Shown in pieces: positions 3,072 through 52,271 of a stretch of DNA of 64,000 nucleotides; position 1 is the stretch's first letter, and every line of letters starts with the position of its first letter. A model generated the notes under the pieces. The model was given only the letters and a program-made list of their open reading frames with translations, made no database searches and had not been told where the DNA came from. A program made the position numbers and the translations under genes. The stretch is from an uncultured bacterium (GTDB lineage Bacteria > Patescibacteriota > Microgenomatia > Levybacterales > UBA12049), in assembly GCA_963826535.1 (NCBI GenBank), contig CAWGXL010000002.1, positions 30,503 to 94,502 of the forward strand, read 5' to 3'.

Positions 3072-3170
3072 ATGACGAGAACCATATCATACTATGAGAT
3101 GTCTGTCAAATATTAAATTGACAACAGTTTATTTTAAAATTTAATTCCGCTCTGATTGAAATACATAAGC

Positions 3171-3275
3171 TTGTCATCCCTACCGAAGCGATAGCCTAGT
3201 TGAGGGATCTCACACAAATGAGTAGCTAAGGCGGTATGAGATTCCTCGACTCCCGTCGGTCGCTCGGAATGACAA
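3171..3275. repeat. Structured palindromic element, copy A: TTGTCATCCC...GGAATGACAA termini enclosing two hairpins closed by ATyCC/GGrAT stems
   Basis: Terminal inverted repeat TTGTCATCCC (3171-3180) / GGAATGACAA (3266-3275). Internal arms are ATCCC(3175-3179)...GGGAT(3204-3208) and ATTCC(3241-3245)...CGACtcccGTCG...GGAAT(3266-3270). It sits in the 3' intergenic region after the 3303..4850 gene. The architecture is shared with copy B at 52156..52271. Confidence 0.5.
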
Positions 3276-3302
3276 TACCAAGTCAACTTATTGCGGCGTA
3301 GT

Positions 3303-4850
3303 TTATTTGTCAACAACTGGTTGGTCAGGTGGCACAGCGCCTCTTTCCATCAATGCTCCCCCTGAACTGACTGGATAAGGATATGGTGGAGTTTGTCTGT
3401 CTTGGAAAAATATAAAGAAAATTAGAGCAAACACAATTCCATAAAACACGAGCCAGAAAATTGTCAGAATGAGAGTTGCCGATCCGGCAATAATCCCTTT
3501 TTTTATACCCACAATAATCCCGGGAGCGAATAAAAACATCGCATAAATACATAAAGAAATAACTGCAAAAAGGAGAATTAAAAGAGAATAGAAAAAGTTA
3601 TAACTGTAATATTGGAAAACCTGTACGAAGTAATAACTTAAAATGTACAAACCGATTGTATATAATAGTATAAGAAGTGACGCGCCGAAACTTGCCCCTA
3701 AAACCACCATGTAAGAAAGAGTTCTGAGGTTACTTGGTTGGTCAGGAGGAGTATCTTTTTTACCAAAAACCTTTTTTACAGCTATAAATAGCGATCCAAA
3801 TGCCAGCACCAGAACGAGAACAAAGATTCCGATTCCAACTCCTATTTCCCGGCCGTATAATTTCCATCTACTATCAGCATACACGCCATGAACTGTATAA
3901 GATTCATTTGGCTGGAGATTAGAAGCTGATTTTACTATTGTACCCTGACCAATTGAATTGTAAAATTGATCAAATTGAGCATTACCCGCGCTTCTCCCTT
4001 CATCAACCGCAGCACTCATAGGAGCGATTGATGTTTCTTTTGCCTGGTAATTAATATCTCCTTTTGCGTCTTTAAGGTAGTAATCAGGATCAACTATGAC
4101 TCCAACCTGCAGGCTTTGAATTGTATCCGCAACTTTAACCGTATCAACAGAAAAATTATATGCTCCAAGCATATCTTTATTCGTAACACCACTCATGGAA
4201 AAGGAAAGAAGCAAGCTTCCGCTGCCATTAGGCTTTACTTCTTTCGGTAATTGAACTGTCAGCTCGCTGCCATTAAGTACAAATTTTGCTTTATGATATG
4301 TTGTAGCCCCCCATCCATATGAATAGTCAGGCTCCTGATACTGATCGCATTTTTGTGTAGGTGGGGGATAATTGTAAATCATAGAATCACTTTCAGAAGT
4401 TAGCGGCATTGGTTGGTATGAAATACACTGCGGCTCCCGGTACACTTGATACACGCTGAGATTTTGCGGATCTTTTTGAAAAGTGAATTTAATTGCCGAC
4501 ACCGAAGCCTCTTCTCTATTTGAAAAAACTGTTTTCAAGGAGAACAAAGCGTCCCCATTGCCCCGTAAAGTTATAGTATAAAAATGATTTTGTCCAAAAG
4601 GGAGACTAGTTTCGGGATTAGGCACCGGGGGCATTATCTTCACCGGCTCGGCAACGCCTGGCATTGTCATTGGTTCCGCATCACGCATCCGATCTTCTGT
4701 CCAATATCCCTCACTCCCTGTAGATTCTGTAGTTGAAGATATGGGTGAAGAGACAGAAACGCTCGCTTTAGTATTATCTTGAGCGAAGGAAGTTATAGGA
4801 AGACAAAGGGTCAATAAAAACACAAACAATACAACCCAGCCTTTTTTCAT
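3303..4850 (-). CDS. secreted/membrane protein: N-terminal signal peptide, ~330-aa extracytoplasmic domain, C-terminal polytopic membrane domain
   Basis: The N-terminus MKKGWVVLFVFLLTLCLPITSFAQD is signal-peptide-like. The C-terminal ~170 aa form several hydrophobic helices (GIGIFVLVLVLAFGSLFIAV..., ...LILLYTIGLYILSYYF..., ...ILTIFWLVFYGIVFALIFFIFF). Confidence 0.6.
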   Translation of the reverse strand: MKKGWVVLFVFLLTLCLPITSFAQDNTKASVSVSSPISSTTESTGSEGYWTEDRMRDAEPMTMPGVAEPVKIMPPVPNPETSLPFGQNHFYTITLRGNGDALFSLKTVFSNREEASVSAIKFTFQKDPQNLSVYQVYREPQCISYQPMPLTSESDSMIYNYPPPTQKCDQYQEPDYSYGWGATTYHKAKFVLNGSELTVQLPKEVKPNGSGSLLLSFSMSGVTNKDMLGAYNFSVDTVKVADTIQSLQVGVIVDPDYYLKDAKGDINYQAKETSIAPMSAAVDEGRSAGNAQFDQFYNSIGQGTIVKSASNLQPNESYTVHGVYADSRWKLYGREIGVGIGIFVLVLVLAFGSLFIAVKKVFGKKDTPPDQPSNLRTLSYMVVLGASFGASLLILLYTIGLYILSYYFVQVFQYYSYNFFYSLLILLFAVISLCIYAMFLFAPGIIVGIKKGIIAGSATLILTIFWLVFYGIVFALIFFIFFQDRQTPPYPYPVSSGGALMERGAVPPDQPVVDK

Positions 4851-4889
4851 ATCTGTTCAAGTACACCATATTCTTTTATCTATGTCAAT

Positions 4890-5807
4890 TCAAAACTTCC
4901 ACCCAAGCTCTTTTTTGATTTCTTTCACGGCTTTCTCGTATTGCTCTTTAGTTAGCTGATTATTTAGAACGCAGTATTTTTTGTTGGCTAAATCCACACA
5001 GCCGAAGCAATCAGAGCAGTTTTTAAGATAGGCGCTATAATAACAATTGGTGCAATATTGACAAAAGTATAAAAAAGCACAGTTATAAAGAGAACGAGAA
5101 AGTGCTAGCTCATAACATCGCTCGGCAACAAGACTTCTGTCCGCGCTACCTGAGTAATATAAATCCCAACAGCTTTTTGCGTTTACGCTAATGAAAATAT
5201 AGCCTGAATTTTCACCATAAAAAGTATTAAAACACCAATAATTATTTTTTGAATTATAAATGTAATTACCATAAAGACAATTCTCATTATCCAACTGTTG
5301 GTTTGCGGGATGAGGAATTTGTCGTTTTAAATCAAACATTTGCTTGAGAAGCTTTTCAGGGTTTTGTTTTCTTAGCTCTTCAACTTTTTTAAAATATTCC
5401 TCTTTGGTATATTGTTTATTAAATATACAATATTTCTTATGAGTTAAACCTACACATCCGAAGCAATCTGCACAGGCATTTAACATCGCGGAAAAATGAC
5501 AGCCTGTACAACTGTTGCAATCCATCAGATACGTACAATTATGACATTTAGTGGAATCAATACATTGATAGCACTTTTCAGATTCTGCAACAAAAGTACA
5601 ATCTACGACTTTGTTACTCCAAAATCCATTCGAAGTATATATCCCGTCTTCCAAGTAGCTTGAAATAAAACAGTGATAGCAATTTTTGCTGTTATAAAGG
5701 ATATCTCCATATTCACAATCAACAGATTGGAAAGTTATAGTTGCCGGAACAGGAATAGATTTTTTCAGAAGCTCATATTTTTCCAGAAAGGTCATAATAA
5801 ATATCAA
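4890..5807 (-). CDS. Cys-rich repeat protein (about 30 Cys, internal two-fold duplication), paralog 1
   Basis: 305-aa ORF with repeated ~11-12-aa units carrying C-x2-C (CYHCF, CYQCI, CHNCT, CNSCTGC, CADCFGCVGL...KKYCIFNKQ). The second half repeats this pattern (...CQYCTNCYYSAYLKNCSDCFGCVDLANKKYCVLNNQ). It is about 65% identical to the ORF at 17309..18217, and the N-termini MTFLEK(Y/F)ELLKKSIPVPA are nearly identical. The likely true start is the second Met at 5795. Confidence 0.6.
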   Translation of the reverse strand: MIFIMTFLEKYELLKKSIPVPATITFQSVDCEYGDILYNSKNCYHCFISSYLEDGIYTSNGFWSNKVVDCTFVAESEKCYQCIDSTKCHNCTYLMDCNSCTGCHFSAMLNACADCFGCVGLTHKKYCIFNKQYTKEEYFKKVEELRKQNPEKLLKQMFDLKRQIPHPANQQLDNENCLYGNYIYNSKNNYWCFNTFYGENSGYIFISVNAKSCWDLYYSGSADRSLVAERCYELALSRSLYNCAFLYFCQYCTNCYYSAYLKNCSDCFGCVDLANKKYCVLNNQLTKEQYEKAVKEIKKELGWKF

Positions 5808-5849
5808 AAATTATTATAGCATAATTTATAATACCGTCTTGACAGCCCC

Positions 5850-5902: not shown

Positions 5903-8032
5903 ATGAGAAACCTTGTTATAGTTGAATCGCCTACAAAAGCAAGAACTATTGGTAAATTCTTAGGAAATGATTATGAGATTAAGTTCTCAATGGGACATAT
6001 TATTGATTTGCCCAAAAGTAAACTCGGGGTTGCGGTTGAAGATGGATTCACCCCGCAGTATGAAGTTATCGCGGATAAGAAAAAGATAATTGCGGATCTG
6101 CGCGCTTCAGCGAAAAAAGCGGACACAATCATTCTCGCGACAGACCCTGATCGTGAAGGAGAAGCGATCGCGTCCAATATTAAAGATGTTCTCTCTAAAA
6201 AAATTTTGGGCAAAGGCAAATCCCCCTCTGGTGAAAAAAACGAAAAATTTAAAAGGATTGTATTCCATGAAATCACAGAGGCTGCAATAAAAGAAGCACT
6301 TGCGAGTCCTAGGGATGTTGATGTTAATTTAGTTAATGCACAGACTGCAAGACGGGTTCTGGATCGGTTAGTCGGTTATCAATTATCACCGGTTTTGTGG
6401 AAGAAAGTTCGGCGGGGATTGTCAGCCGGTAGAGTGCAAAGTGTTACCTTGCGTCTTATTGTAGAGCGCGAGCGGGAAATTGAAAAATTCGCTAAGGAGC
6501 CATATTGGACAGTTCATGCGTTGTTTACAAAATTAGAAAATGACGCGGTAGAATTTACTTTATTAGAAATTAATGGTGAGAAAATAGAAACTTCTCAAAC
6601 ATTTACTCTTTACGATGGAGAATATAAAACAACAAAAACTATTATTGACAGTCAAAACAGAGCAGAGGAGATTGCCAAAGATATTACAGGGAAGAATTTT
6701 ACTGTCGCGGATGTGATCAAGCGGCAGATAAAACGTAGCCCCTATGCGCCTTTCACAACATCTACTATGCAGCAGGATGCATCCCGGCGATACGGATTTT
6801 CAGGAAAAAGGACTATGAGGTTAGCGCAAAAACTATACGAAGAAGGATTTATTACTTATCATAGAACCGATTCGGTAATTTTGTCCCGTCCCTCAATCAC
6901 ACAAATACGGACATTTATTCAAAAAGAATATGGTGAGAAATACGTGCCTGAAAAACCCCGGATTTATTCAGCCAAACAAAAACTTGCTCAGGAAGCTCAT
7001 GAAGGAATCAGGCCGACAAAAATCCAAAAAGTAAGCCTACAGGCAAATGGAGAAATAACAAATGATCATACTAAACTATATGAATTAATTTGGAAGCGGA
7101 CAGCCGCATCACAAATGAGTGATGCATTAATTGAATCAACAACTGTGTACGCAGATTCTACTGTTGTCATTGCGAGCGGTAGCGAATCAATCTCTAATAA
7201 TAATCTTTACAGATTTAAATCAACAGGCTCAGTACTTCTTTTCGATGGGTTCTTGAAATTGACTCCACTGGCTTTGCAGGATAGACAGCTACCACAATTT
7301 ATATCAGGGGAATCTTTGACACTAAGCAAATGTTTTAACACAGCGCATGAAACCCAACCGCCTCCAAGGTACAACGAGGCATCGCTGATCGCGGCTTTGG
7401 AAGAAAAAGGAATCGGCCGTCCATCAACATATGCTTCGATCGTCGCGACACTTATAGATCGCGGATATGCTGAACGAATTGAAAAGCGATTTGAACCAAC
7501 AGTTGTTGGGAAAGCGGTTAATGATTTTCTTGTCACTAATTTTTCAGCAATTGATGATATTCCGTTTACAGCGGAGATGGAAGATAAATTGGATAGCATT
7601 GCTCAAGGAAAAAAAGAATGGGTAGATATGATGCGCGACTTCTATACTCCTTTTGAAAAAAAGATAAGCGAGGTAGAAAGTGCAAGTAGAGTAAAGATAG
7701 AAACTCAGCCAACAAGTGAGATTTGTCCTCTATGCGGAGCAAATGTAGTGATAAGGTATGGAAAATTTGGAAAATTTCTTTCCTGTAGTAAATTTCCCGA
7801 ATGTAAGTTCACTAAATCTTATGCCGAGGAAACCAATTTAACCTGCCCAAAAGATAATGGAAACATTATTGTAAAGAAAACCCGCAAAGGCCGTAAATTT
7901 TTCGGTTGTTCCAATTATCCCGCCTGCGACTTCGCGGCGTGGAAGTTAGAAGACATTAAAAATTATGATCCAAACGCACCTGCAAAAAATAAAACTGAAA
8001 CGAAAATGATCTCTATCGGGAAGGAGAAGTAA
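5903..8032 (+). CDS. topA: DNA topoisomerase I with C-terminal zinc-ribbon repeats
   Basis: A 709-aa TOPRIM start (MRNLVIVESPTKARTIGKFLG...) is followed by the topoisomerase IA core (...GFITYHRTDS... with an active-site Tyr context). The C-terminus carries CxxC...CxxC ribbons (CPLCGANVVIRYGKFGKFLSCSKFPECKF; CPKDNG...FFGCSNYPACDF). Confidence 0.9.
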   Translation: MRNLVIVESPTKARTIGKFLGNDYEIKFSMGHIIDLPKSKLGVAVEDGFTPQYEVIADKKKIIADLRASAKKADTIILATDPDREGEAIASNIKDVLSKKILGKGKSPSGEKNEKFKRIVFHEITEAAIKEALASPRDVDVNLVNAQTARRVLDRLVGYQLSPVLWKKVRRGLSAGRVQSVTLRLIVEREREIEKFAKEPYWTVHALFTKLENDAVEFTLLEINGEKIETSQTFTLYDGEYKTTKTIIDSQNRAEEIAKDITGKNFTVADVIKRQIKRSPYAPFTTSTMQQDASRRYGFSGKRTMRLAQKLYEEGFITYHRTDSVILSRPSITQIRTFIQKEYGEKYVPEKPRIYSAKQKLAQEAHEGIRPTKIQKVSLQANGEITNDHTKLYELIWKRTAASQMSDALIESTTVYADSTVVIASGSESISNNNLYRFKSTGSVLLFDGFLKLTPLALQDRQLPQFISGESLTLSKCFNTAHETQPPPRYNEASLIAALEEKGIGRPSTYASIVATLIDRGYAERIEKRFEPTVVGKAVNDFLVTNFSAIDDIPFTAEMEDKLDSIAQGKKEWVDMMRDFYTPFEKKISEVESASRVKIETQPTSEICPLCGANVVIRYGKFGKFLSCSKFPECKFTKSYAEETNLTCPKDNGNIIVKKTRKGRKFFGCSNYPACDFAAWKLEDIKNYDPNAPAKNKTETKMISIGKEK

Positions 8033-9879: not shown

Positions 9880-12800
9880 ATGGGAGAAACCTCACTTGCC
9901 GAGTCAATCGACCCAAAATTGGTAAATTTTCAAAAAGACGTACCTACTCAGAAAAAACCAAATTTGTATCTAGTTAACCCTCCGCAGCATCTAGAATCTT
10001 CCGCTAAAAAGAAAAATGGCGAAGTTCCTCATCCACCGGAAAAATCAAAATTTATATTTGACAGATCAAAAATTGAAGATGAATCAAAAAACTTTGATAA
10101 AGCAATACTAGATCCACTTACCGGAGTTGACCCTGCTTTTGAAGCAGGAACAAAAAACAATTTAGATTACCTTTGCCGCACCGGCGATCTTGAATTTAAC
10201 ACCCCAAGAACACAGATTCTTCAGAATATTGTCGATAAAATGACAGGACAAGACGGTATTCATGAAAAACTTATGACCGTATCTTCAAAAAAAGCAGTTG
10301 AAGCACGAATTGTAATAAAAAACAAAGGCGAGGCAGATGACGCCTTTGTACTTCCGGACGGGACGATTGTTTTATCTCAATCACTTATTGATAAGCTTAC
10401 TTTGGATGAGGTTGGCGGAGTCATGGCTCATGAGATTAACCACATCAGAACCGAAACAGCGGCAAAAAAAGAAGCAGCCGGAGGTCATGCATTTGGAGTT
10501 TGCTGGGCGCATGAAACCGCGGAAGACGCACTCGCTCCTGACCTATTGGTAAAAGCCGACCTTAATAGTTTAGGATTCTCTTCAGCAATCATCAAAGTTT
10601 CGGGCGCGGAAAGAGGAAGTATACATCAAAGTGGACTTTCCCGTGGTTCACAAAGCGTAGGACAGCACTTCGGACTGGATTTCGGCACAAGCAGCCAAGA
10701 ACAGACGCCACTTCCGGAACTACTAAAAACAAAAGAACCAATAAAAAAAACCAATCTGGAAGTAATGGGACAGCTTATCCGCCAGCAGGAACCTGAAAAT
10801 GTAGAACAAACGCTCTCTCTTTTGCACCCGCATGACTTAAAAGACGCTTATCAACATATAATCAATCAGGAGCGAGGAGGTGAATATTGGTCTCCAAAGG
10901 CGCTAACCGAGGAACAGAAAAAAATTATTGAGCTTGGCAGCGCGTATTTAAATAATCGATTGGAAGAAGCAGGCTATTCGCAAACTGAAAGGAATCTATT
11001 TTTTATCTTTATGCAAAGTTATAGTGCACGTACCCCCAGCTTCAGCATGATAAAAACACCTGAAATGGTGCTTGAAGCGACACGCGCTTTACCGGACTAC
11101 ATTAACTTTGGCGGACATGGCGACATTCATAGATCTCTTTTTGATAAAGAAATTACCGGCAGTACGGTGGAATCTTTCCTAAACATAATAAGTGCTAGAA
11201 TGCATGATACCGGTATCTCTCCTCAAGGTCAGAATGAAATACCCATCACAAAAGAGATTCTATTAAAAACACTGACTGAGATAAATTCGTGGGAAAATAT
11301 CGCCAACGGTTTAAAAGTTAAAGGTAAAGCAGGAGTATTTACCCAGGTCATAGAAAGTTATATAAGTAAAACCTACATCAGTACAGATAATGCCTATAAA
11401 AAGTTGCTTGATGAAACAAAAACAAGAGAATTACTTCAGGAAGTAAAAGATTTAAATATCCCAATAAATCTGGATACCCTTCATACAAGAATGAGTGCCT
11501 CTCCGGAAGAAAGAAAAGTTTATGAATTATTTAAAGAATTTTTTGTAGAAAAGAGCCCTAAAACAACTGAGCAAAGTATAGACGATTTTCTTGACTCATA
11601 TATAGGTCTACCGGAAAATGAAAAAGGAGGGGAACTTGATTATTTCATGAAAATAATCCGCAAAGATTTCGATGAAAAAGAACTAACAGACGCTCAAAGA
11701 ATAAATTATGTCAAGTATTTCGGGTCAAAAGTAAAAGAGCTCGATCTCTCATCAAATATTGACCTAAACAAGGAACTCAATCTGAATATTAAAGAAATTC
11801 CAGACAAAGAGCTATTCCAAAGAAACTTATTGGAATTTAATATGCAATCAAATGCTGCACTCGCCCTGCTGCAAAAAGACGGTGAAGAATTTTATGATTA
11901 TATTAAAGTACTTATGGATAAATCAGGCATTGATATACAAAACTGTTCTCCGGCAGGAATATACAATCTCAGCGCGAGCTTAATTAATATAGACAAAGGT
12001 CACTTTTACAACTTTGACGAGAAAAGTGTTAAAGAGAAAGATTATGTCTTCTTATTAAACCAAATAAAAATTGAAAACATAAATAAGTATCTTCAATTGC
12101 CGTTTCTCCAAAAACTCATGGAAGAATCTGAAAAAAAATTATCTTTTACAACATTAAAAGATTTAAACAAGTATATTGATACTGAAATATTCCAAAAAAG
12201 GCTTGATAGTAGAAGCAGCAGTCATTTATTTGAAGACACACTAAGCTCAATAATTACCCTAAAACCGGTTAGGGAAAATTTCTTGGAATTACTACAACGC
12301 GGTGTCCCTGAAGATGAATACCCACAGTTGTATAAATTTATAAAATTAGAATATCCATCAGGTCCGCGTGAAAAAGAATTTCTCAGAGCATTAAATGTCA
12401 GGTATTTGGACAAACCAATTGGTTCCCAAAACGAATTACATGAGAGAATTGATTATCTTAAGCAAAATTTTAATTCCGTCGGACCGGAGGGGATGGCACT
12501 ACTTGCCAATCATATCAATACATTGCCTCAATATCTGCATTTCAGGAAAGAAATGGCAGAGCTATTGGCCACTTATTTGGATGGGTCAGGTATAGTCAGC
12601 GCTGTCGCGATGGGAGACTTCGCAACCTCGTTTTTTACAAAACACTTTGCGGATCTATTAGAAAGCAGCAAAACAGACAAGCAGACAAAAAGTAAATTAT
12701 CAACAGACATGGCCAAGGAATGGTTCAAATTTTTCTTTATAGAAGGATCTAATCGTGATAAAAGAGTGAATTTTGACAAAGAAACAGGCAAAATAGAATT

Positions 12801-14574
12801 AAACGGTACCACACGAGATATTTTCAAAACATTTGCTGATTTGGTAAAAGAAATAAAAGGTCTTTCTGAACTTAAGAGATTTGCTATCACCCACAAATCA
12901 CTGGTTGATACCGGAGGAGCATTAACAGACGACAACAACAGAAAGCAATTGGGAGAAATACTTAACGCATCTCTGGAAACAAAGTCAACTTTTATCAGTC
13001 ATGCTCTGCAAAAAGGCTGCGAGCTAGCACCGGCAGAATTTTTCAGCTTCCCAATCTCAAAAATGCTTGCTCCTTTATTATTTAGGAGCCTTGATACCAA
13101 TTATGTGGATCTTAAAAAAGTATCGAGGGAAGATTATGAGGATAAAGTTCCATATAAACAGCTTCCTGTATTATTCGGATCAGACACCAGAGACGTAACG
13201 CTTTTTGGCGCACATTACAAAGGGGAGACTAATACAAAAGTTGCCCAAATGGCCATAGAAAGCGATGATCAATACCACCTCGCAACCCAATTACTTGATC
13301 GAATACTTACAGAAGAACCTGTTATAGGGGCGCCACATAAAGAGCCTGACGAAAAAGTTAAAGTTGATCCCAATACTGAAGCGATTATTAGCGCTGTTGA
13401 AGCGAGCGGGCCACTTGGAAAAAGATGTCTTCAGCTCTCGCGCCAACTTCATGAATTTGCGCCGGCTACAGACAGACGTCTTGCGAATTCCTTTGATAGC
13501 ACACCCGGTCTGAATAAATTGTTTCTTTGGGAAAATCTGGTCAGACATATGGAAAATGGTCATGACCCCGAACTTTCGGATTTTATAAAAAATAACCTTG
13601 TGGAGCTTAATGATGTCATAGCTGGCGGCAGCCTAAATACTGTAGCCAGCGCTAAAGTCAAAGATGAAAAAGGTAATACACGAAGCGCAGTTCTTCGTTA
13701 TCTCAACCCCAACCCGGAAGTTTTTATCGCAAAAACCCATGAAACAGCGCAAAAAGTATTAGAAGCAATTGAACTGACGGGAAATTCGCAAGATAGAAAA
13801 TTTGCGCGTATGGGATTAGTTTTTACTGATCTCTCCCGGGAATGGTGTCTCCGCGATATCAATGACCCGACATATGAAAAAGATGATGATGAATTTCGGG
13901 AGACTATTAGGTCATTCAATGAGCAAAAAGCAACATCATTCTATGCACCGGAACGGCTATTTACCCATAGAAAATTGAAAGTTGAGGAAGAAGCAGAAGG
14001 CAGGACAATAAATAAACTATTAAATGATGCAAACATATCTGTTAATGAAAAAAAGGAAACGGTCAACCGCCTAATGAGCTTTTTTGACTTTCAATTAACA
14101 AACCTGGCAGGAACCTCAGAGACAGGAGAAAATTACTATCTCATCCATTCAGATCCTCATGTTGGCAATTACATGATGGAAAATGGAAACTTAACAGAAA
14201 ACGCCGTACTAGATAGAAACATGTATTTGAAAATTAACGGGCAAGAAGCAAATATGTTTCATAATTTATTAAATACAGGCGACTATAAAACTTTTATTGA
14301 TCCGTTTATAGATGCATTATTGGATAAGAATAAAGTAATAAATGAAACTACAAGAAACGAAAGTAAAAAAAGGATAATGCGCTCCATGAAAACCGAGTAT
14401 TTAAAACAACAAATGTATCGCATGGTAAAATTCCGTTCAACCGTTGATAATTTTTCATTGATACGTAGTCTTATGAATGAATGCGCGGAAGCTAAGTTGG
14501 ATATACCGCTTGAAATGCGCCTTATGATCAGAAATGTAGAAATATTCAGAAATTTGGCGCAAAAATATTCTTAA
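9880..14574 (+). CDS. giant multidomain protein (1564 aa): N-terminal soluble M48-like Zn-metallopeptidase domain and C-terminal UbiB/ABC1-like atypical kinase domain
   Basis: The N-terminal region ...ADDAFVLPDGTIVLSQSLIDKLTLDEVGGVMAHEINHIRTE...AHETAEDALA fits the M48 pattern (NAF..G..ivl..gLl..l...El.aVlaHElgH, followed by the E..AD..A third-ligand motif). The C-terminal region GGSLNTVASAKVKDEKGNTRSAVLRYLNPN...HSDPHVGNYMMENG...VLDRNMY matches ABC1/UbiB motifs (ASIGQVH...VAVKVQRP; HADPHPGN), with K->R in VAVK and DFG->DRN. There is no signal peptide or TM segment. The ~900-aa Lys/Glu-rich middle has no motif I can name. Confidence 0.6.
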   Translation: MGETSLAESIDPKLVNFQKDVPTQKKPNLYLVNPPQHLESSAKKKNGEVPHPPEKSKFIFDRSKIEDESKNFDKAILDPLTGVDPAFEAGTKNNLDYLCRTGDLEFNTPRTQILQNIVDKMTGQDGIHEKLMTVSSKKAVEARIVIKNKGEADDAFVLPDGTIVLSQSLIDKLTLDEVGGVMAHEINHIRTETAAKKEAAGGHAFGVCWAHETAEDALAPDLLVKADLNSLGFSSAIIKVSGAERGSIHQSGLSRGSQSVGQHFGLDFGTSSQEQTPLPELLKTKEPIKKTNLEVMGQLIRQQEPENVEQTLSLLHPHDLKDAYQHIINQERGGEYWSPKALTEEQKKIIELGSAYLNNRLEEAGYSQTERNLFFIFMQSYSARTPSFSMIKTPEMVLEATRALPDYINFGGHGDIHRSLFDKEITGSTVESFLNIISARMHDTGISPQGQNEIPITKEILLKTLTEINSWENIANGLKVKGKAGVFTQVIESYISKTYISTDNAYKKLLDETKTRELLQEVKDLNIPINLDTLHTRMSASPEERKVYELFKEFFVEKSPKTTEQSIDDFLDSYIGLPENEKGGELDYFMKIIRKDFDEKELTDAQRINYVKYFGSKVKELDLSSNIDLNKELNLNIKEIPDKELFQRNLLEFNMQSNAALALLQKDGEEFYDYIKVLMDKSGIDIQNCSPAGIYNLSASLINIDKGHFYNFDEKSVKEKDYVFLLNQIKIENINKYLQLPFLQKLMEESEKKLSFTTLKDLNKYIDTEIFQKRLDSRSSSHLFEDTLSSIITLKPVRENFLELLQRGVPEDEYPQLYKFIKLEYPSGPREKEFLRALNVRYLDKPIGSQNELHERIDYLKQNFNSVGPEGMALLANHINTLPQYLHFRKEMAELLATYLDGSGIVSAVAMGDFATSFFTKHFADLLESSKTDKQTKSKLSTDMAKEWFKFFFIEGSNRDKRVNFDKETGKIELNGTTRDIFKTFADLVKEIKGLSELKRFAITHKSLVDTGGALTDDNNRKQLGEILNASLETKSTFISHALQKGCELAPAEFFSFPISKMLAPLLFRSLDTNYVDLKKVSREDYEDKVPYKQLPVLFGSDTRDVTLFGAHYKGETNTKVAQMAIESDDQYHLATQLLDRILTEEPVIGAPHKEPDEKVKVDPNTEAIISAVEASGPLGKRCLQLSRQLHEFAPATDRRLANSFDSTPGLNKLFLWENLVRHMENGHDPELSDFIKNNLVELNDVIAGGSLNTVASAKVKDEKGNTRSAVLRYLNPNPEVFIAKTHETAQKVLEAIELTGNSQDRKFARMGLVFTDLSREWCLRDINDPTYEKDDDEFRETIRSFNEQKATSFYAPERLFTHRKLKVEEEAEGRTINKLLNDANISVNEKKETVNRLMSFFDFQLTNLAGTSETGENYYLIHSDPHVGNYMMENGNLTENAVLDRNMYLKINGQEANMFHNLLNTGDYKTFIDPFIDALLDKNKVINETTRNESKKRIMRSMKTEYLKQQMYRMVKFRSTVDNFSLIRSLMNECAEAKLDIPLEMRLMIRNVEIFRNLAQKYS

Positions 14575-15105: not shown

Positions 15106-17274
15106 ATGATAAACCGAAAGGCGTTCGGTAATTTAGTTGTTTTGAAAGAGCAATTAAAAGAGAAGTGCGGAGTCATTGGGGTTTGGTCTGGAGAAAAAAT
15201 TGCGCCTTATTATGTACGAAAAGGTTTGTCCACACTGCAGCATCGAGGTCAAGAAAGTGCCGGAATTAGCATTTACACTCCTCAAGACAAAATAAAAACT
15301 TATTCAGGCATGGGTCTTGTTCTCGGTGTGCTGACAGCCGAAGTTCTTAAGCAGCTGGGAGAAAGTATGGCTGCTATTGGACATAATAGATATTCTACCA
15401 GCGGCAGTACCAGTTTAAGTAATGCCCAACCTATTACGCTCAAAAAGGGAAAATTTGAATTGAGCATAGGACATAATGGCAATATCCCTGATTGCGAGTA
15501 CCTTGGAGAACAAATAGAAGAAAAACAAAAAGAAGGAGAAACCAGCGATACTCATCTAGTCGCAAAGCTCCTATTGCAAGAACGGCCAAACTATTCAGAT
15601 TGGGACGAAACCCTAAAACAAGTATTACCGCGAATTCGCGGAGCTTTTTGTTTTGTAATTTTAACTGAAGACGGCAACATTTACGGCGCCCGCGATACAT
15701 ATGGTATACGGCCCTTTTGTTTAGGAAAATTTGAGAATGGGTGGATTATTGCCTCAGAATCTGTTGCTGTTGATTTAACAGGTGCCGAATTTTTGCGCGA
15801 TATTAAACCGGGAGAGATTATTAAGATCAGCTTTGATGGGAAGCTTACCTCTTTCTTTTTCGGTGCGCCATCAAGAGAACAGAATTGTATTTTTGAATAT
15901 ATTTATTTTTCCCGCCCGGATAGTTTTGAAAATGGCATTAGGATAAGAAAAGGGCGTGAAGAATCAGGCAGACTGTTGGGACAGCGAATTCTGAAAAAGG
16001 CAATCTTGGCAGATGTCGTGGTCCCTGTCTTTGACTCCGGATATCCGGCGGCGAAAGGAGTGGCGCATGTTCTTGGATTGCCTCTTGTGGACGCTATTAC
16101 TGTAAGTCATTATATCGGCCGAACTTTTATCCAACCGGGGCATGAAAATAGAAAGGCAGCAGTGAATGGCAAGCATAATATTATACCCGATGATATTAAG
16201 GGTATGCGAATTATTGTGGTTGATGATTCAGCAGTACGATTAACAACGAGCAAGCGGTTGACTCGTGAATTAAATGCAGCAGGTGCAAAGAGTGTATTTA
16301 TGGCTATTGCCAGCCCTCCAGTTGTTAACCACTGCGATATGGGCATTGATATGAAAAGTAAAAAAGAACTGCCGGCTTCTCTTTGGGAACATGAACCATT
16401 TGAGCTGATTGAAGAAAATGTTGCCAAGTTTATAGGCTCAAATGCAGCCGTGTATTTGCCAATTGAAGATTTAACCCGCGCTTTAGGAGGCGCAAAAGAG
16501 GATTTCTATCACTATCCGTTTGGTGGACCGCATCCTATACGCGATGCACAGCATAAATTTCCCAAGAGGAAGAAAACTATAAATCCTAAACCAAGAATAG
16601 CAATTTTAATTTCCGGAACTGGCACAAATCTTCAGGCAATTATCGATGGTGTAAAAACTCATGATATTGAGGCAGAAATCGTTTCAGTGGTATCGAACAA
16701 AAAGGACGCCTATGGTCTCAAAAGAGCCAAAGAGAATAATATTCCAACCCTCGTTCTTCCTATGACAGGAAAACTGAATGATAAAGTCGCGAGAAAAGAA
16801 TTTGAGTTGAAGCTTCTTGCTCATATCAAAAAGACCGCCGCCGACCTTATTGTTTTGGCTGGCTGGATGTTGGTTTTGGGGGATGAGTTCCTATCTGCTT
16901 TAGCAAAATTGGAAGTGCCTGTTATTAATCTTCATCCCGCGTTATTATCAAAAGGCAATGAAGATCATATCGCTACATCACGCGGGACTATCCCGGTTAT
17001 CCGTGGTATAGGTACACAAGCAATAAAATATGCTTTTGACAAAAACTTACTTGTTTCAGGAGTGACAGTCCATCAAATACTCCCCAAAAATAATTTTGAT
17101 ATCGGCCCGGTCATTTTAAAAGAGGAAGTAAGAAGAAGAAAAGAAGATACACTTGAAACATTTGAGAAACGAACTCATGAAGCGGAATATCGGGTTTTAC
17201 CAACAGCGATCAAAAGAGTTTTGCACGTCATGAAACAAGGAGTAGATGTAAGCCGCGGGGAGTTTTATTGGTAA
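15106..17274 (+). CDS. purF: fusion protein: amidophosphoribosyltransferase (PurF, with ~20-aa propeptide) fused to phosphoribosylglycinamide formyltransferase (PurN)
   Basis: The PurF part has the Ntn class-II amidotransferase start ...KEKCGVIGVW after a propeptide, and a PRTase motif ...GMRIIVVDDSAVRLTTSKRL.... The C-terminal ~200 aa read PRIAILISGTGTNLQAIIDG...VINLHPALLSK...GVTVHQI, the PurN formyltransferase signatures. Confidence 0.8.
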   Translation: MINRKAFGNLVVLKEQLKEKCGVIGVWSGEKIAPYYVRKGLSTLQHRGQESAGISIYTPQDKIKTYSGMGLVLGVLTAEVLKQLGESMAAIGHNRYSTSGSTSLSNAQPITLKKGKFELSIGHNGNIPDCEYLGEQIEEKQKEGETSDTHLVAKLLLQERPNYSDWDETLKQVLPRIRGAFCFVILTEDGNIYGARDTYGIRPFCLGKFENGWIIASESVAVDLTGAEFLRDIKPGEIIKISFDGKLTSFFFGAPSREQNCIFEYIYFSRPDSFENGIRIRKGREESGRLLGQRILKKAILADVVVPVFDSGYPAAKGVAHVLGLPLVDAITVSHYIGRTFIQPGHENRKAAVNGKHNIIPDDIKGMRIIVVDDSAVRLTTSKRLTRELNAAGAKSVFMAIASPPVVNHCDMGIDMKSKKELPASLWEHEPFELIEENVAKFIGSNAAVYLPIEDLTRALGGAKEDFYHYPFGGPHPIRDAQHKFPKRKKTINPKPRIAILISGTGTNLQAIIDGVKTHDIEAEIVSVVSNKKDAYGLKRAKENNIPTLVLPMTGKLNDKVARKEFELKLLAHIKKTAADLIVLAGWMLVLGDEFLSALAKLEVPVINLHPALLSKGNEDHIATSRGTIPVIRGIGTQAIKYAFDKNLLVSGVTVHQILPKNNFDIGPVILKEEVRRRKEDTLETFEKRTHEAEYRVLPTAIKRVLHVMKQGVDVSRGEFYW

Positions 17275-17308
17275 CCCGCCTTACGCATAACATGATAAAA
17301 TAAGAACG

Positions 17309-18217
17309 ATGACCTTTCTTGAAAAATTCGAACTCCTGAAAAAATCAATTCCTGTTCCGGCCATAACGATTGACAAATCTACAATTGATTGTGAATACGT
17401 AGATTATGCCTATGGAAGCAAAAATTGCTATTATTGTTTTACTAGCAATCTACTTAAAGACAGTATGTATTCAACAATGGGATGGGGCGATAAGTTAGTA
17501 GATTGTACTTATTTAGCAGAGTCGGAAAGATGTTTTCAATGCGTTGATTGCACTAAATGTTATAGCTCTACCTATTTAATGGATTGTAATAGCACTACTG
17601 ATTGCCATTTCTCGGCATTTTTAAACTCTTGCAACGATTGTTTTGGTTGTGTTGCATTAACTCATAAGAAATATTGTATTTTCAACAAACAATACACAAA
17701 AGATGAATATATGAAAAAAGTTGAAGAATTAAAAAAAGAAAAACCTGAAAAGATTCTAAAACAAATGCTGGAATTAAAAAAACAAATACCTCATCCCGCA
17801 AGCATACAATACAATAATGAAAAAAGCCCTTATGGTGATTATATATATGATTCAAAGAACGTTTATTGGGGTTTTAATTGTTGGTATGGAGAAAATTGTG
17901 GATATATCTATACAGGCGGTACGTCGAAAAACTCATGGGACACTTTTTTCTCAGGCGGATTCAAATCTAAAGGAACTATTTCTGAACGAGTTTATGAACA
18001 AGTAGATTCAGTCGTATGTTACGATTGTGCATTTCTTAACAATTGTAATAACTGCACTAATTGTTATTACAGCGCGGATATGAGAAACTGCTCAGACTGC
18101 TTCGGTTGCGTTGGGCTATCAAAGAAAAAATACTGTATCCTCAATAATCAACTAACCAAAGACCAATACGAAAAAGCTGTTAAAAATATCAGAAAAGAAC
18201 TTGGGTGGAAATCTTAG
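17309..18217 (+). CDS. Cys-rich repeat protein, paralog 2, embedded in the purine operon
   Basis: 302-aa ORF about 65% identical to 4890..5807 with the same C-x2-C repeat architecture and N-terminus (MTFLEKFELLKKSIPVPA). It starts 35 bp after purF-purN and overlaps the purD start. Confidence 0.6.
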   Translation: MTFLEKFELLKKSIPVPAITIDKSTIDCEYVDYAYGSKNCYYCFTSNLLKDSMYSTMGWGDKLVDCTYLAESERCFQCVDCTKCYSSTYLMDCNSTTDCHFSAFLNSCNDCFGCVALTHKKYCIFNKQYTKDEYMKKVEELKKEKPEKILKQMLELKKQIPHPASIQYNNEKSPYGDYIYDSKNVYWGFNCWYGENCGYIYTGGTSKNSWDTFFSGGFKSKGTISERVYEQVDSVVCYDCAFLNNCNNCTNCYYSADMRNCSDCFGCVGLSKKKYCILNNQLTKDQYEKAVKNIRKELGWKS

Positions 18218-18233
18218 TCTTGGAAAGATAGAT

Positions 18234-19535
18234 ATGGTAAAAAAGTCAGTCCTCATCATCGGCAACCTAGCCCGCGAACATGCCCTGGGTTGGAAACTTA
18301 AACAATCTGCCAAAGTAGGAAAAATTTATTTTGCTCCCGGAAATGTGGGCACTGGTCTAATTGGTGAGAATACAGGAATTGATGCCCTTGATATTAAGTC
18401 ATTAGTAAAATTTGCTAAAACGCATAATATTTATTTGACCGTTGCCGGCCCTGACGCATCGCTTGCTGCCGGAGTAGTTGACGAGTTTAAAAAAGCTAAA
18501 ATGAAAATTTTCGGACCCACTAAGAATGCGGCACAAATTGAATCATCAAAAGCCTTTTCGAAACAGTTGATGAAAGAAGAAAATATCCCGACAGCAGTTT
18601 TTAAAAAATTTACCGATCCCTCAAAAGCCAACAAATATGTCAAAACACTAAGCTTGCCGATTGTCATAAAAGCCAGTGGATTGGCATCGGGTAAAGGAGT
18701 AATTATCGCAAAAACCTTAGACGTAGCGCAAAGATTAATTGATGATATTTTAATTAAGAAAATCTTCGGAGAATCAGGCAATGAAATAATCATTGAAGAA
18801 TTTTTAGAAGGCCATGAAATTTCCATCCACGCTTTTTGTGACGGAAAAACCGTTTCAGTATTTCCTGTAAGTAAAGATCACAAGTCTATTTTTGAAAACA
18901 ACCTCGGGCCAAACACCGGCGGCATGGGAACGATTGCACCTGTGCCGGGTTTAAATAAATCTTTTTTGAAAGAAGTAAATCAAACAATTGTTCAACCGGC
19001 TCTCAATGGCATGAAGAAAAAAGGAATTACCTTTACCGGTTGTTTATATCCGGGATTAATTTTAACCAAACAAGGACCAAAAGTACTCGAATTTAATTCC
19101 CGTTTTGGCGACCCGGAAATGGAATCTTACATGAGGATTTTAGAGACCGATATTTTTGATATTTTAGAAGCATGTGTCAACAGTACACTTTCTCAACTGA
19201 ATATCAAATGGAAAAAACAATTCGCATGTTGTATAGTCCTTGCATCCGCTGGTTATCCAGGAACAGTAAAGACAGGAGAAATTATACATGGCCTTAAACT
19301 TACTCCTCCCTTGATAAAGGGAGGTCGGGAGGGATTTAATAATGACGTTGCAGTATTCCATTTCGGAACCAAAATTGAAAATGGGAACTTAGTCACAAAT
19401 GGCGGCAGGGTCCTCGGCATAACAGCAATCGGAAATACTTTGGATCAGGCTTTAGATAAAGCATATGCTATGATTGGAGAAAAAGGAATCCATTTTTCGG
19501 GAATGCAATATAGACGGGATATTGGAAGATCATGA
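18234..19535 (+). CDS. purD: phosphoribosylamine--glycine ligase (GAR synthetase)
   Basis: The PurD N-terminus reads MVKKSVLIIGNLAREHALGWKLKQSAKVGKIYFAPGNVGT. The ATP-grasp body is present. The C-terminus reads ...NGGRVLGITAIGNTLDQALDKAY. The track ORF begins at an upstream TTG (18201), and ATG 18234 is the more likely start. Confidence 0.85.
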   Translation: MVKKSVLIIGNLAREHALGWKLKQSAKVGKIYFAPGNVGTGLIGENTGIDALDIKSLVKFAKTHNIYLTVAGPDASLAAGVVDEFKKAKMKIFGPTKNAAQIESSKAFSKQLMKEENIPTAVFKKFTDPSKANKYVKTLSLPIVIKASGLASGKGVIIAKTLDVAQRLIDDILIKKIFGESGNEIIIEEFLEGHEISIHAFCDGKTVSVFPVSKDHKSIFENNLGPNTGGMGTIAPVPGLNKSFLKEVNQTIVQPALNGMKKKGITFTGCLYPGLILTKQGPKVLEFNSRFGDPEMESYMRILETDIFDILEACVNSTLSQLNIKWKKQFACCIVLASAGYPGTVKTGEIIHGLKLTPPLIKGGREGFNNDVAVFHFGTKIENGNLVTNGGRVLGITAIGNTLDQALDKAYAMIGEKGIHFSGMQYRRDIGRS

Positions 19536-22534
19536 AAAACCAAACAGCAAGAATAGAAATATTTTCAAAAGTATTTGATACGCGGGCTGTGACATCAAAG
19601 AACCGATTGATAAAACTGAGTTTAGTAACTGGAGATATTGATCTGTGGATTTCCGATGTCTATACGATTGATAAAACTTTTACCTCACCCCAACTTCAGA
19701 GGATTGCATCAATGCTCGCAAACCCTGTAATCCAAGACACAGTCATCCGTAAACAATTTGAAACTAAAACGTTTGACAATACTAAGCCATTTTCTTTCGC
19801 AATCGAGATCGGATTTCTTCCCGGTGTTACCGATAATGTAGCTAATACTGCGCGGGAAGGGATTGAAGATTTATTAAAAACAAAATTTAGTGAACAAGAA
19901 GGCGTTTATTCTTCACAACTATTTTTTCTGAAAGGAAAAATAACAGAACATGAAGCTTTAAAAATCGCCGAGAGTCTTTACAACCCACTTATCCAACGGG
20001 TTCATCTGAAAGACTTTAAAACATTTAAGAAAGATGGCGGTATGGAATTTATAGTGCCCCGCGTTATTATTACGCAAACCCCAAGTGTGACACAGGTTAA
20101 TCTTAAAGTTTCCGATAAAGAACTCCAGACAATCGGCAAATCAGGTATTGCCAACCCTGATGGAACTCGTCGCGGGCCGCTCGCCTTGAATTTGGCTTAT
20201 ATGAAAACCATACAAGCATTTTTTAAAAAGCTGGGAAGAAAACCAAACGATATAGAACTTGAATCCATTGCGCAGACCTGGTCTGAGCATTGTAAGCATA
20301 CGATTTTTGCCGATCCGATTGATGAACTCAAAGAGGGAATATTTAAAACATATATCAAAGGCGCAACCGAAAAGATTAGGAAGAAAAAGGGCAAGAGTGA
20401 TTTTTGCGTTTCCGTCTTTACCGATAATTCCGGAGCGATTGTTTTTGACGAAAAATATTTGGTAACACATAAAGTTGAAACACATAACAGTCCGTCAGCT
20501 CTTGATCCATTTGGTGGAGCAATTACAGGAATTGTTGGCGTAAACCGGGATACCATCGGATTTGGATTAGGAGCAAAGCCGGTTGCCAATTTTTATGGAT
20601 TTTGTTTTGCAGACCCCCGATTGGATATACCATTATATAAGGGAAAAAATAAAACGCAGAGAATGCTATCTAGTCAGCGTATTATGGATGGGGTTATCGC
20701 GGGCGTAAACAGCGGAGGCAACCAATCCGGAATTCCAACACCGCAGGGCTTCGTATATTTCAATGAGCGATTCCGGGGAAAACCACTCGTCATTGTAGGA
20801 ACAGTAGGGCTCATTCCCAGAAAAATAAAATCAAAATTTTCGCATGTAAAGAAGGCAAAACCCGGAGATTATATCGTCATGGTAGGTGGACGTGTTGGAA
20901 AAGACGGTGTTCATGGCGCGACATTCTCCTCAGAGGCTTTGGATTCCGGCAGTCCGGCAACATCTGTGCAGCTCGGTGATCCCATCACTCAAAAGAAATT
21001 AAGCGATGCAATAGTAAAAGAAGCGCGGGATATTCTTGCTTTTAACAGTATTACCGATAATGGCGCCGGCGGACTTTCCTGTTCGGTTGCAGAAATGGCC
21101 AAAGAGTCAGGCGGATGTCTGGTCGAACTTGAGAAAGTACCATTGAAATATCCTCATCTCGATCCATGGGAAATATGGGTTTCCGAGTCACAGGAACGAA
21201 TGACACTTGCAGTACCGAAAAAGAATTGGAAGAAGTTTTTTGATTTGATGAAAAGGCGGGGGGTTGAGGCAACAGTTATCGGAGAATTTACAGATAGCGG
21301 AAAGTGTATTGTAAAATTTAACTCAAAAACAATTATGAATATGGATTTGAACTTTTTGCATTACGGATTACCCAAGAGACCAATGAAAACGAACAAACCA
21401 CAAATCACGAATCACGAATCACGAATACCGGAAAATAAAGATTTAAATAAATCATTGCTACAAATGCTTTCAAGATTAAATATTGCGAGTTTCGAATTCA
21501 TCTCCCAACAATATGATCATATCGTGCAAGGCAATGCTGTACTTGGACCATTGCAAGGATGGGGAAAGGTTAATGGGGACACATCGGTAATAAGACCTGT
21601 TCTTTCATCTCAAAAAGGAGTGATTTTGTCTCAAGCTTTGTACCCAACATATAGCGAAATTGATCCGTATCGTATGGCAGGGGCGAATATTGATACGGCA
21701 ATTCGAAATGCAGTAGCAGCCGGCGCAAATCCTGACTATTTGTCACTTCTTGATAATTTTTGTTGGTGCAGCGCAAACGAGCCCGAGCGGCTTTATCAGT
21801 TAAAACTAGCAGCAAAAGCATGTTTCGATTTTGCCGTTGAGTATGGAACCCCATTCATTTCCGGCAAAGATAGCATGTTCAATGATTTTAATGGATTTGA
21901 TAAAGATGGTAAACCCATAAAAATTTCTGTCCTACCTACACTTCTTATTTCCTCATTCGGAGTTATTAATGACATAACCAAAGTTGTCTCACTGGATGCA
22001 AAATTGCCGGGAGATTTAGTCTATATTTTAGGCGAATCTTTTGATGAATTAGGCGGCTCTGAATATTTAGCAATGTTGAGTGAACGAGATAGAAAACAAT
22101 ATTTTAGTAAAAATATACCAAATGTTAATGCGCCGCGAAATAGGAAATTATATTCCGCATTGTATACCACAATCCAAAAGAATTTGGTTGCATCAAGCAT
22201 TAGTATAAGACATGGAGGATTGGGAGTAGCGCTGGCAAAAAAAGCGCTTGGCGGAATGCTCGGAATTACTGTTGATCTAAAACTAATTCCAGGAAACGTA
22301 AAGCGCGATGATAGTGTGTTGTATTCGGAAAGCCAAGGACGAATACTAGTTACTGTTGCGCCGGAAAATAAAACAGCATTTGAAAAGATATTTCGAGGGA
22401 ATTCATACTCGCTTGCTGGGAGGGTTACGAAAGAACCAAATATAATGATAAAAGGATTACAAGGAAATGAAATAATAAACCTTAGTTTAGCAAAAACATT
22501 GGAAGCATACAGAGAAACATTTAAAAATTTTTAA
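19532..22534 (+). CDS. purL: phosphoribosylformylglycinamidine synthase subunit PurL with an N-terminal PurS-like extension
   Basis: The 1000-aa body is PurL (FGAM synthase II), with AIRS/AIRS_C-like repeats (...VETHNSPSALDPFGGAITGIVGVNRD...) and overall co-linearity. The first ~150 aa (...LQRIASMLANPVIQDTVI...) resemble PurS (LLANTVIEDY). Confidence 0.75.
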   Translation: MKNQTARIEIFSKVFDTRAVTSKNRLIKLSLVTGDIDLWISDVYTIDKTFTSPQLQRIASMLANPVIQDTVIRKQFETKTFDNTKPFSFAIEIGFLPGVTDNVANTAREGIEDLLKTKFSEQEGVYSSQLFFLKGKITEHEALKIAESLYNPLIQRVHLKDFKTFKKDGGMEFIVPRVIITQTPSVTQVNLKVSDKELQTIGKSGIANPDGTRRGPLALNLAYMKTIQAFFKKLGRKPNDIELESIAQTWSEHCKHTIFADPIDELKEGIFKTYIKGATEKIRKKKGKSDFCVSVFTDNSGAIVFDEKYLVTHKVETHNSPSALDPFGGAITGIVGVNRDTIGFGLGAKPVANFYGFCFADPRLDIPLYKGKNKTQRMLSSQRIMDGVIAGVNSGGNQSGIPTPQGFVYFNERFRGKPLVIVGTVGLIPRKIKSKFSHVKKAKPGDYIVMVGGRVGKDGVHGATFSSEALDSGSPATSVQLGDPITQKKLSDAIVKEARDILAFNSITDNGAGGLSCSVAEMAKESGGCLVELEKVPLKYPHLDPWEIWVSESQERMTLAVPKKNWKKFFDLMKRRGVEATVIGEFTDSGKCIVKFNSKTIMNMDLNFLHYGLPKRPMKTNKPQITNHESRIPENKDLNKSLLQMLSRLNIASFEFISQQYDHIVQGNAVLGPLQGWGKVNGDTSVIRPVLSSQKGVILSQALYPTYSEIDPYRMAGANIDTAIRNAVAAGANPDYLSLLDNFCWCSANEPERLYQLKLAAKACFDFAVEYGTPFISGKDSMFNDFNGFDKDGKPIKISVLPTLLISSFGVINDITKVVSLDAKLPGDLVYILGESFDELGGSEYLAMLSERDRKQYFSKNIPNVNAPRNRKLYSALYTTIQKNLVASSISIRHGGLGVALAKKALGGMLGITVDLKLIPGNVKRDDSVLYSESQGRILVTVAPENKTAFEKIFRGNSYSLAGRVTKEPNIMIKGLQGNEIINLSLAKTLEAYRETFKNF
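21403..21423 (+). repeat. (AATCACG)x3 heptanucleotide tandem repeat inside the purL coding sequence
   Basis: aatcacg aatcacg aatcacg, encoding ...ITNHESRIP.... The 7-nt unit is not a multiple of 3. Confidence 0.8.
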
Positions 22535-22548
22535 TTGAAAATTATTTT

Positions 22549-23346: not shown

Positions 23347-23386
23347 TACTGTTTGCAATATTGAGCTTATAGTGATATAATAATTT

Positions 23387-24400: not shown

Positions 24401-24404
24401 CTTT

Positions 24405-25511: not shown

Positions 25512-25520
25512 TTATTTATT

Positions 25521-28048: not shown

Positions 28049-28164
28049 AAAAAACGTTTTGGATTTTAGATTTTGGTCATTTGACATTGTTTCGGATTTG
28101 GCGCTTTGGTATTAGAATTTTAATTGATTTATAGAAATGTTATACTTTTAGTAGTTTTAATATT

Positions 28165-52135: not shown

Positions 52136-52155
52136 TTATTTATGTTACGCAAAAC

Positions 52156-52271
52156 AATTTGTCATTCCCGCGAACGCGGGAATCCAGTAGGTAAAATAAG
52201 CCTGTTCCATTTATCATTTAATAAGGAAAAGTTATTTATATCTTCTGGATTCCCCTGTCCAGGGGAATGAC
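52156..52271. repeat. Structured palindromic element, copy B: TTGTCATTCC...GGAATGACA termini with two perfect 9-bp hairpins and an additional GGAATCCAG/CTGGATTCC inverted repeat
   Basis: Left arm TTGTC-ATTCCCGCG-aa-CGCGGGAAT-CCAG (52156-52184). A 60-nt AT-rich spacer follows. Right arm CTGG-ATTCCCCTG-tcc-AGGGGAAT-GACA (52245-52271). The arms are reverse complements of each other except in the hairpin cores. Confidence 0.55.

Follow-up and report, generated by a model that had tools for sequence, protein, structure and literature searches.

The CGTC-tagged REPs are built from a CGTC or TGTC tag (CCTC is also allowed), a stem of 8-9 bp beginning with AT, a loop of 4-5 nt and a CCA tail, with a few families having loops of other lengths (PMC3733652). 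They occur mostly as inverted pairs, named HH dimers by the authors of that survey, in which the two members are separated by spacers of 20-100 bp; they lie mainly downstream of genes, are plausibly transcribed, are found in several phyla and include the neisserial repeat dRS3 among their members (PMC3733652). The survey found no dedicated transposase or other enzyme for them (PMC3733652). Chenal et al. (2025, PMC11893778) extended dRS3 to a 28-nt motif, the NTS (consensus CGTCATTCCCGCGMAVGCGGGAATCYRG), and described degenerate Ssn-related motifs (SRM) in addition. Their protein SsnA is a 94-aa GIY-YIG protein that binds and cuts the NTS as single-stranded DNA, on one strand only, and that does not act on double-stranded DNA or on RNA; binding depends critically on the C that follows the palindrome, and cutting on the three bases that precede it (PMC11893778). 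A copy of the motif typically lies on either side of ssnA (NTS-ssnA-NTS), and in N. meningitidis the SsnA/NTS system reduces transformation by motif-bearing DNA (PMC11893778).

Two further systems resemble these repeats in architecture. The neisserial intergenic mosaic elements carry dRS3 on both sides of 50-150 bp (dRS3-RS-dRS3; Bentley et al. 2007, PMC1797815), and their arrays are stated to be unseen outside the genus Neisseria (PMC1797815). In the REPIN/RAYT system (Bertels and Rainey 2011, PMC3116915), two inverted REPs with a GTAG tag form a long hairpin of ~100 nt, and the same REPs bracket a single-copy gene that encodes a Y1/HUH transposase.

Here we describe two elements, copies A and B, in a window of 64 kb (the whole stretch of DNA that was analysed) from a Patescibacteria-like MAG, a type of host outside the groups covered by the CGTC REP survey (PMC3733652). 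They are of a known kind: we are highly confident that both are inverted dimers of CGTC-tagged REP/Ssn-related hairpin motifs, that is, of the dRS3/NTS/SRM class.

Anatomy of the two dimers

An earlier note on this DNA had described two elements of ~110 nt with shared termini, each made of two hairpin arms and each lying just 3' of a gene stop. Both elements are present. Copy A occupies exactly the coordinates given there (105 nt, from TTGTCATCCC to GGAATGACAA), while copy B, which had been started 2-4 nt too early at 52156, actually runs from 52160 to 52272 (113 nt, from TGTCATTCCC to GGGGAATGACA). The position relative to genes was also correct, with copy A lying 27 nt past the stop of the gene at 3303-4850 (minus strand) and copy B 24 nt past that of the gene at 50960-52135 (plus strand). 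Both copies are intergenic and stand as isolated single units in the window. Their parts are as follows.

3171-3275, no strand: copy A, two inverted long-loop modules whose tags face outwards
3172-3212, plus strand: A-left module, TGTC, 6-bp stem ATCCCT/AGGGAT, 21-nt interior ACCGAAGCGATAGCCTAGTTG, C, tail TCA
3213-3236, no strand: copy A spacer, 24 nt
3237-3274, minus strand: A-right module, TGTC, stem ATTCC/GGAAT, 20-nt interior GAGCGACCGACGGGAGTCGA, C, tail TCA
52160-52272, no strand: copy B, inverted dimer of two canonical modules with 8-bp stem and 4-nt loop
52160-52187, plus strand: B-left module, TGTC-ATTCCCGC-GAAC-GCGGGAAT-CCAG
52188-52244, no strand: copy B spacer, 57 nt, AT-rich
52245-52272, minus strand: B-right module, TGTC-ATTCCCCT-GGAC-AGGGGAAT-CCAG

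Each copy pairs two modules in inverted orientation, both of them reading TGTC-AT(T/C)CC…GG(G/A)AT-C and then a 3-nt tail, which is CCA in copy B and CTC in copy A. Read along the forward strand, copy A is laid out as TTGTCATCCC-TACCGAAGCGATAGCCTAGTTGA-GGGATCTCA, the spacer of 24 nt and TGAGATTCC-TCGACTCCCGTCGGTCGCTC-GGAATGACAA, and copy B as TGTCATTCCCGC-GAAC-GCGGGAATCCAG, the spacer of 57 nt and CTGGATTCCCCT-GTCC-AGGGGAATGACA. All four modules have the TGTC tag, with GTC immediately 5' and C immediately 3' of the palindrome. The pattern GTCATYCC-N4-30-GGRAT matches the window four times, where 0.16 matches would be expected, and four was not attained in any of 100 shuffles. A broader structural scan of the window (GTC, a stem of at least 5 bp starting with AT, a loop, the complementary stem and C) returned the same four modules and one hit within a gene, which is probably due to chance. 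Between the modules, no conservation was found when the interiors of copies A and B were compared, and B-right differs from B-left at two stem pairs, both changed in a compensatory manner. The conserved, repeating unit is the terminal hairpin module of 28-41 nt, and not the element of ~110 nt.

The folding of the elements depends on the unit that is considered. As whole RNAs they reach -40.8 (copy A) and -48.2 (copy B) kcal/mol, with z of -3.8 and -8.5; since the two termini of an element repeat each other in inverted orientation, the most stable structure predicted for the complete sequence is a single long hairpin and not two. In copy B the inverted repeat extends ~10 nt past the modules into the spacer, giving arms of 37 nt. 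The two hairpin arms proposed in the earlier note are real as terminal modules, but they are not what the complete element is predicted to form. As isolated single-stranded DNA, B-left and B-right fold into hairpins with an 8-bp stem and a 4-nt loop (-8.0 kcal/mol, z -3.9, and -6.7 kcal/mol, respectively), and A-left into a weak one (-3.3 kcal/mol); the copy A modules, treated in this way, fold no better than shuffles.

When set beside the described systems, the two copies show both likenesses and differences: (i) They share with the CGTC-1 family (Di Nocera, De Gregorio and Rocco 2013, PMC3733652) the TGTC tag, the stem starting with AT and a 3-nt tail, and with the CGTC REPs in general the inverted dimers, the spacers in the range of 20-100 bp (24 and 57 nt here) and the intergenic location downstream of genes. 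The copy B modules match CGTC-1 exactly in their 8-bp stem, 4-nt loop and CCA tail, whereas those of copy A differ in having stems of 5-6 bp, interiors of 20-21 nt and the CTC tail. The CGTC REPs are by definition multi-copy, and the count for this window is four modules in 64 kb. (ii) Both copy B modules are exact dRS3 (ATTCCC-N8-GGGAAT), for which copy A does not qualify. B-left departs from the NTS consensus at one base (T at position 1) and is matched by the SRM pattern; the other three modules (A-left, A-right and B-right) fall outside the published pattern, and yet the critical GTC and C positions are kept in all four (PMC11893778). The window also has isolated dimers where the NTS/SRM motifs form clusters around particular genes (PMC11893778). 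(iii) With 65 nt between its two 20-nt dRS3 cores, copy B formally counts as a single mosaic unit of the neisserial type (dRS3-57 bp-dRS3; PMC1797815). The mosaic elements, however, form arrays in the genus Neisseria, whereas copies A and B are single isolated units in a Patescibacteria-like host. (iv) The likeness to the REPIN/RAYT system (PMC3116915) resides in the pair of inverted REPs forming a hairpin of ~100 nt and in the gene bracketed by the same repeats; the tag is (C/T)GTC here instead of GTAG, and the enzyme linked to the CGTC/Ssn modules is a GIY-YIG nuclease instead of a Y1/HUH transposase. The idea, put forward in the earlier note, of a REP-like or MITE-like element with fixed ends and a variable interior was therefore well founded, the elements being inverted dimers of CGTC/TGTC-tagged REP hairpins (PMC3733652, PMC11893778).

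The module family and its association with ssn genes

Together, the two module types are present in more than 260 public loci, with GC contents from 0.32 to 0.69, and the family that the earlier note had proposed from two copies numbers in the hundreds across public collections. The B-type module, taken as exact GTCATTCCC-N8-GGGAATCCAG, was found in at least 120 loci of a viral-contig collection, the A-left type in at least 120 loci of metagenome contigs and the A-right type (GTCATTCCGAGCG…GAGGAATCTC) in 27 loci, two of which (L129 and L150) carry modules one base apart from A-right. Between ATCCC and GGGAT, A-left is identical at 20 of 23 nt to the left module of locus L173 (MAG 'bacterium isolate ELA643', GC 0.37), where a dimer of 168 nt lies between convergent genes (7050-7221). 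CTC tails, like those of copy A, are frequent among the A-type families. In the loci fetched, neighbouring modules were paired with their tags outwards in 38 cases and inwards in 8, and the tags-out dimers mostly measure 58-180 nt, compared with 105 and 113 nt in the window.

The covariation check suggested in the earlier note gave a clear outcome. Among the matches listed for the A-left pattern with both sides of stem position 3 left free, this position is T-A or C-G in 119 of 122 modules (Fisher p 3e-26, a value that ignores relatedness). Stem covariation in this family is strong.

Both module types are associated with ssn genes in other loci, Patescibacteria included. In the B-type loci, units of ~375 nt with the same termini enclose an ORF of ~97 aa with a Pfam GIY-YIG match (E 1e-15), and inverted modules bracket eight of the nine GIY-YIG genes among the matches listed. 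The ssn genes, for which the published definition is a GIY-YIG gene of the cd10448 type, were recognised here by Pfam GIY-YIG and by an HMM built from the B-type-locus proteins. The same HMM matches 8 loci among the A-left-pattern loci listed. In three loci (L192, L207 and L273) the order is module-ssn-module, with tails (CTCAC…GTGAG) identical to those of copy A; because of this arrangement, we conclude that the long-loop modules of the A type belong to the same Ssn system, though they are missed by the published SRM pattern. The Ssn proteins are not represented by any NCBIfam model, their match in the PDB is only a weak one (1ZG2, an uncharacterised UPF0213 protein), and a literature search linking GIY-YIG to repetitive extragenic palindromic by those terms found no papers.

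Patescibacteria frequently encode Ssn homologues, and the genes are accompanied by flanking modules. In a Ca. Magasanikbacteria genome (L306, GCA_001784475.1), ssn lies between TTGTCATCCCGAACGAATGTGAGGGATCTCTG and an inverted partner module, an arrangement also seen in a Parcubacteria-type locus (L311), while in Berkelbacteria (CP011213, L308) one module lies directly upstream of ssn. L306 also carries a B-type dimer, which brings both module types into one genome, as in the window. Within the same locus (3937-5838), the module-ssn-module unit stands directly upstream of comEC and the B-type dimer after it; given the effect of SsnA on transformation in Neisseria, this adjacency is suggestive, in what is a single lineage. 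A separate observation concerns L241 (1560-2354) and L247 (74-790), where the ssn frame is open from stop to stop and runs on across modules arrayed in tandem downstream, whose translation is a repeated ECHSDRSVSAAEESL-like peptide.

The window itself has no ssn or other GIY-YIG gene by tblastn or by hmmsearch of all ORFs of at least 50 aa, whereas both of its module types flank ssn homologues elsewhere. Nor did Pfam reveal a transposase, recombinase, phage or insertion-sequence gene in the 64 kb, and the co-occurring transposase or recombinase contemplated in the earlier note is accordingly absent from this stretch. Its other supposition, a common factor recognising the elements, was right in spirit: the factor known for such motifs is a nuclease for single-stranded DNA of the GIY-YIG type, reported not to interact with RNA (PMC11893778).

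Host relatives and the insertion of copy B

The phosphomannomutase encoded at 53623-55038 has its closest named relatives in the Patescibacteria group (77% identity), followed by Levybacteria, Daviesbacteria and Woesebacteria; some related contigs come from groundwater metagenomes, and a scan of a genome collection gave 48% identity for the closest relative. Module density in the host's close relatives is low, with one module in ~120 kb. The window encodes DprA and a pilin-like protein. It also contains, at 15106-30772 (plus strand), a complete cluster for de novo purine synthesis, comprising a purF-purN fusion, purD, purL, purQ, purB, purK, purE, purC, a purM-like gene and two archaeal-type PurP (DUF1246/DUF1297); Patescibacteria are usually described as being without nucleotide synthesis. 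Upstream of it, at 9880-14574 (plus strand), lies an ORF of 1564 aa whose sole Pfam match is a short M48 peptidase segment.

Four loci (L126, L299, L300 and L301), in which the phosphomannomutase is 74-81% identical to that of the window, allowed the site of copy B to be compared. There, the orthologues of the genes at 50960-52135 and 52307-52711 are 5-8 nt apart, against 171 nt in the window. Comparison of the flanks further revealed that each copy is bracketed by a perfect direct repeat of 9 nt, located 15-36 nt outside the dimer.

3126-3134, no strand: left 9-nt direct repeat AGTTTATTT of copy A, from the flank comparison
3300-3308, no strand: right 9-nt direct repeat AGTTTATTT of copy A, overlapping the stop of 3303-4850 (minus strand)
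52136-52144, no strand: left 9-nt direct repeat TTATTTATG of copy B, immediately after the stop of 50960-52135
52301-52309, no strand: right 9-nt direct repeat TTATTTATG of copy B, including the ATG of 52307-52711

Removing one repeat of copy B and everything between the two leaves stop-TTATTT-ATG, a spacer of 6 nt such as the relatives have. Since four relatives have 5-8 nt where the window has 171 nt, and since excision between the repeats gives 6 nt, it is well supported by this comparison of sequences that copy B is an insertion and was not inherited. For copy A, the orthologues of the 515-aa gene have other downstream neighbours, and they show just that no module follows the gene there.

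Shuffled flanks reach 9 nt in 52 of 5000 trials for copy A and in 70 of 5000 for copy B, ~1% each. The bracketed units, of 165 and 156 nt, are longer than the dimers, show no inverted repeats at their ends apart from the modules and resemble one another outside the modules weakly at best (outer ends ACGC… and …GGAATT). Flanking 9-nt duplications were not found at other dimers, where long flanking repeats are due to arrays. We know of no mechanism for CGTC-type repeats, GIY-YIG or HUH enzymes that predicts a target duplication of 9 bp.

Another site close to copy B varies among the relatives. In two of them a lone NTS-like module, TTGTCATTCCCGCGAAGGCGGGAATCCAGA, separates holA from the phosphomannomutase gene (L301, 9935-9964; L302, 1437-1466), and no 9-nt duplication accompanies the one in L301. 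This spacer is of 9 nt in L299 and L300 and is free of modules in the window, where it holds a perfect palindrome followed by an A-run (GAGCGAT-TTA-ATCGCTC, 53547-53563) at the site that is occupied by 9 nt or by a hairpin module in the relatives.

Proposed mechanism, alternatives and meaning

We consider it likely that the dimers are pairs of CGTC/TGTC REP/Ssn motifs, gene-less counterparts of the module-ssn-module units, that arrived by insertion. The module opens with an unpaired (C/T)GTC tag; a stem that starts with AT and closes over a loop comes next, and the obligatory C and a tail of 3 nt follow. On single-stranded DNA it would fold into a hairpin. Following what has been reported for SsnA (PMC11893778), small single-domain GIY-YIG nucleases of this family would bind the hairpin and cut beside it, on the GTCAT… strand only; as the two modules are oppositely oriented in a dimer, there would be one cleavable module per strand. 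The damping of natural transformation, likewise, is a finding made in Neisseria (PMC11893778). With ssn genes bracketed by the same inverted modules, the dimers of ~100 nt look like gene-less, non-autonomous counterparts of these units, and may stand to them as REPINs do to RAYT genes. They would have reached the host genome by insertion, as is suggested by copy B, which sits in a spacer that measures 5-8 nt in the relatives and has the 9-nt duplication around it, and a cognate Ssn, encoded elsewhere in the host, would act on the four modules; Ssn or another enzyme may also have mobilised them. We are considerably less confident of this last part, the action of an active Ssn on copies A and B within the host, than of the classification.

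Other readings were weighed against this one. The elements might instead work at the RNA level, being transcribed with the 3' end of the upstream mRNA, or within an operon in the case of copy B, and stabilising the transcript, attenuating read-through or yielding a small RNA. Such a role is suggested by the position of both elements just 3' of stop codons, by their strong folding as RNA on either strand and by the mostly downstream and plausibly transcribed location of REPs in general (PMC3733652). Copy B also resembles the Rfam family RF02625, WsnRNA46 (Wolbachia sRNA 46), whose namesake is reported as an expressed small RNA of Wolbachia (PMC12796755): at a relaxed threshold the full model matches 52139-52291 on both strands, with 38.6 and 35.5 bits. 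These scores are, however, far under the gathering value of 65.3. The consensus of RF02625 is itself an inverted dimer of such modules, like copy B, so that the Rfam family appears to have been modelled on a dimer of a CGTC-type repeat; its interior is unrelated to that of copy B. At the gathering score, no Rfam family was found in either element, and ARAGORN called no tRNA or tmRNA in the window; the known RNA genes that the earlier note had named as a possible refutation do not cover the elements. Its bidirectional terminator finds no support, as no hairpin with a T-run was found at copy A or copy B on either strand, and this lack of a terminator-like site also speaks against the RNA-level role, together with the interior that differs between the copies and with modules that flank protein genes and are met in either orientation, as suits an element acting as DNA. 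We therefore regard this role as unlikely to explain the elements, although it can coexist with the reading as Ssn-motif dimers as a side effect.

The perfect 9-nt direct repeats around both copies, and the return to the ancestral spacing when the bracketed segment of copy B is removed, would also be expected if the dimers were miniature derivatives of a DDE cut-and-paste IS that makes 9-bp duplications, with the modules as part of the cargo or as its ends; the bracketed units exceed the dimers, as this would have it, and their outer ends are weakly alike. Yet these units lack inverted repeats other than the modules, the window has no transposase, AT-rich 9-mers recur by chance at ~1%, other dimers are without such duplications and the modules are clearly of the Ssn-linked family, all of which make a DDE origin quite improbable. 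A part in site-specific integration is less probable still. dRS3 is the reported integration site of neisserial filamentous phages, by means of a transposase/recombinase encoded by the phage (PMC1797815), and both copy B modules being exact dRS3, the dimers could be conceived as scars or landing pads of a recombinase. The window, however, has neither a recombinase nor a phage or IS gene, nothing is integrated at the four modules, and this account leaves the tags-out architecture of the dimers and their linkage to GIY-YIG genes without explanation.

Returning to the dimers as gene-less counterparts of the module-ssn-module units, their present mobility is a further proposal, and a doubtful one: they would be non-autonomous units of ~160 nt in Patescibacteria, making a 9-bp duplication and mobilised in trans by an Ssn-type nuclease or by an unrecognised partner. 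To our knowledge, nobody has demonstrated mobility or transposition of CGTC/Ssn-type repeats. If the dimers did move by way of Ssn, this would supply the dedicated enzyme and the insertion mechanism that have been missing for the CGTC-type REPs since 2013, Ssn would be a transposase-like enzyme of a new catalytic class, and single strands entering the cell might be processed by the system as well, in bacteria that are thought to depend on DNA uptake.

Taken as they stand, these results connect a sequence that an annotator might have listed as a structured RNA of unknown kind, or as a terminator, with a named repeat class, its published record and a biochemical partner. They go modestly beyond the published findings known to us in placing the Ssn/hairpin-repeat system, with long-loop variants, in Patescibacteria (the candidate phyla radiation), in providing one clean comparison of a filled with an empty site, with a 9-nt duplication, and in an apparent link between Rfam WsnRNA46 and a dimer of the same repeat. 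They leave the general picture unchanged, and they bear on how the CGTC-type REPs spread.
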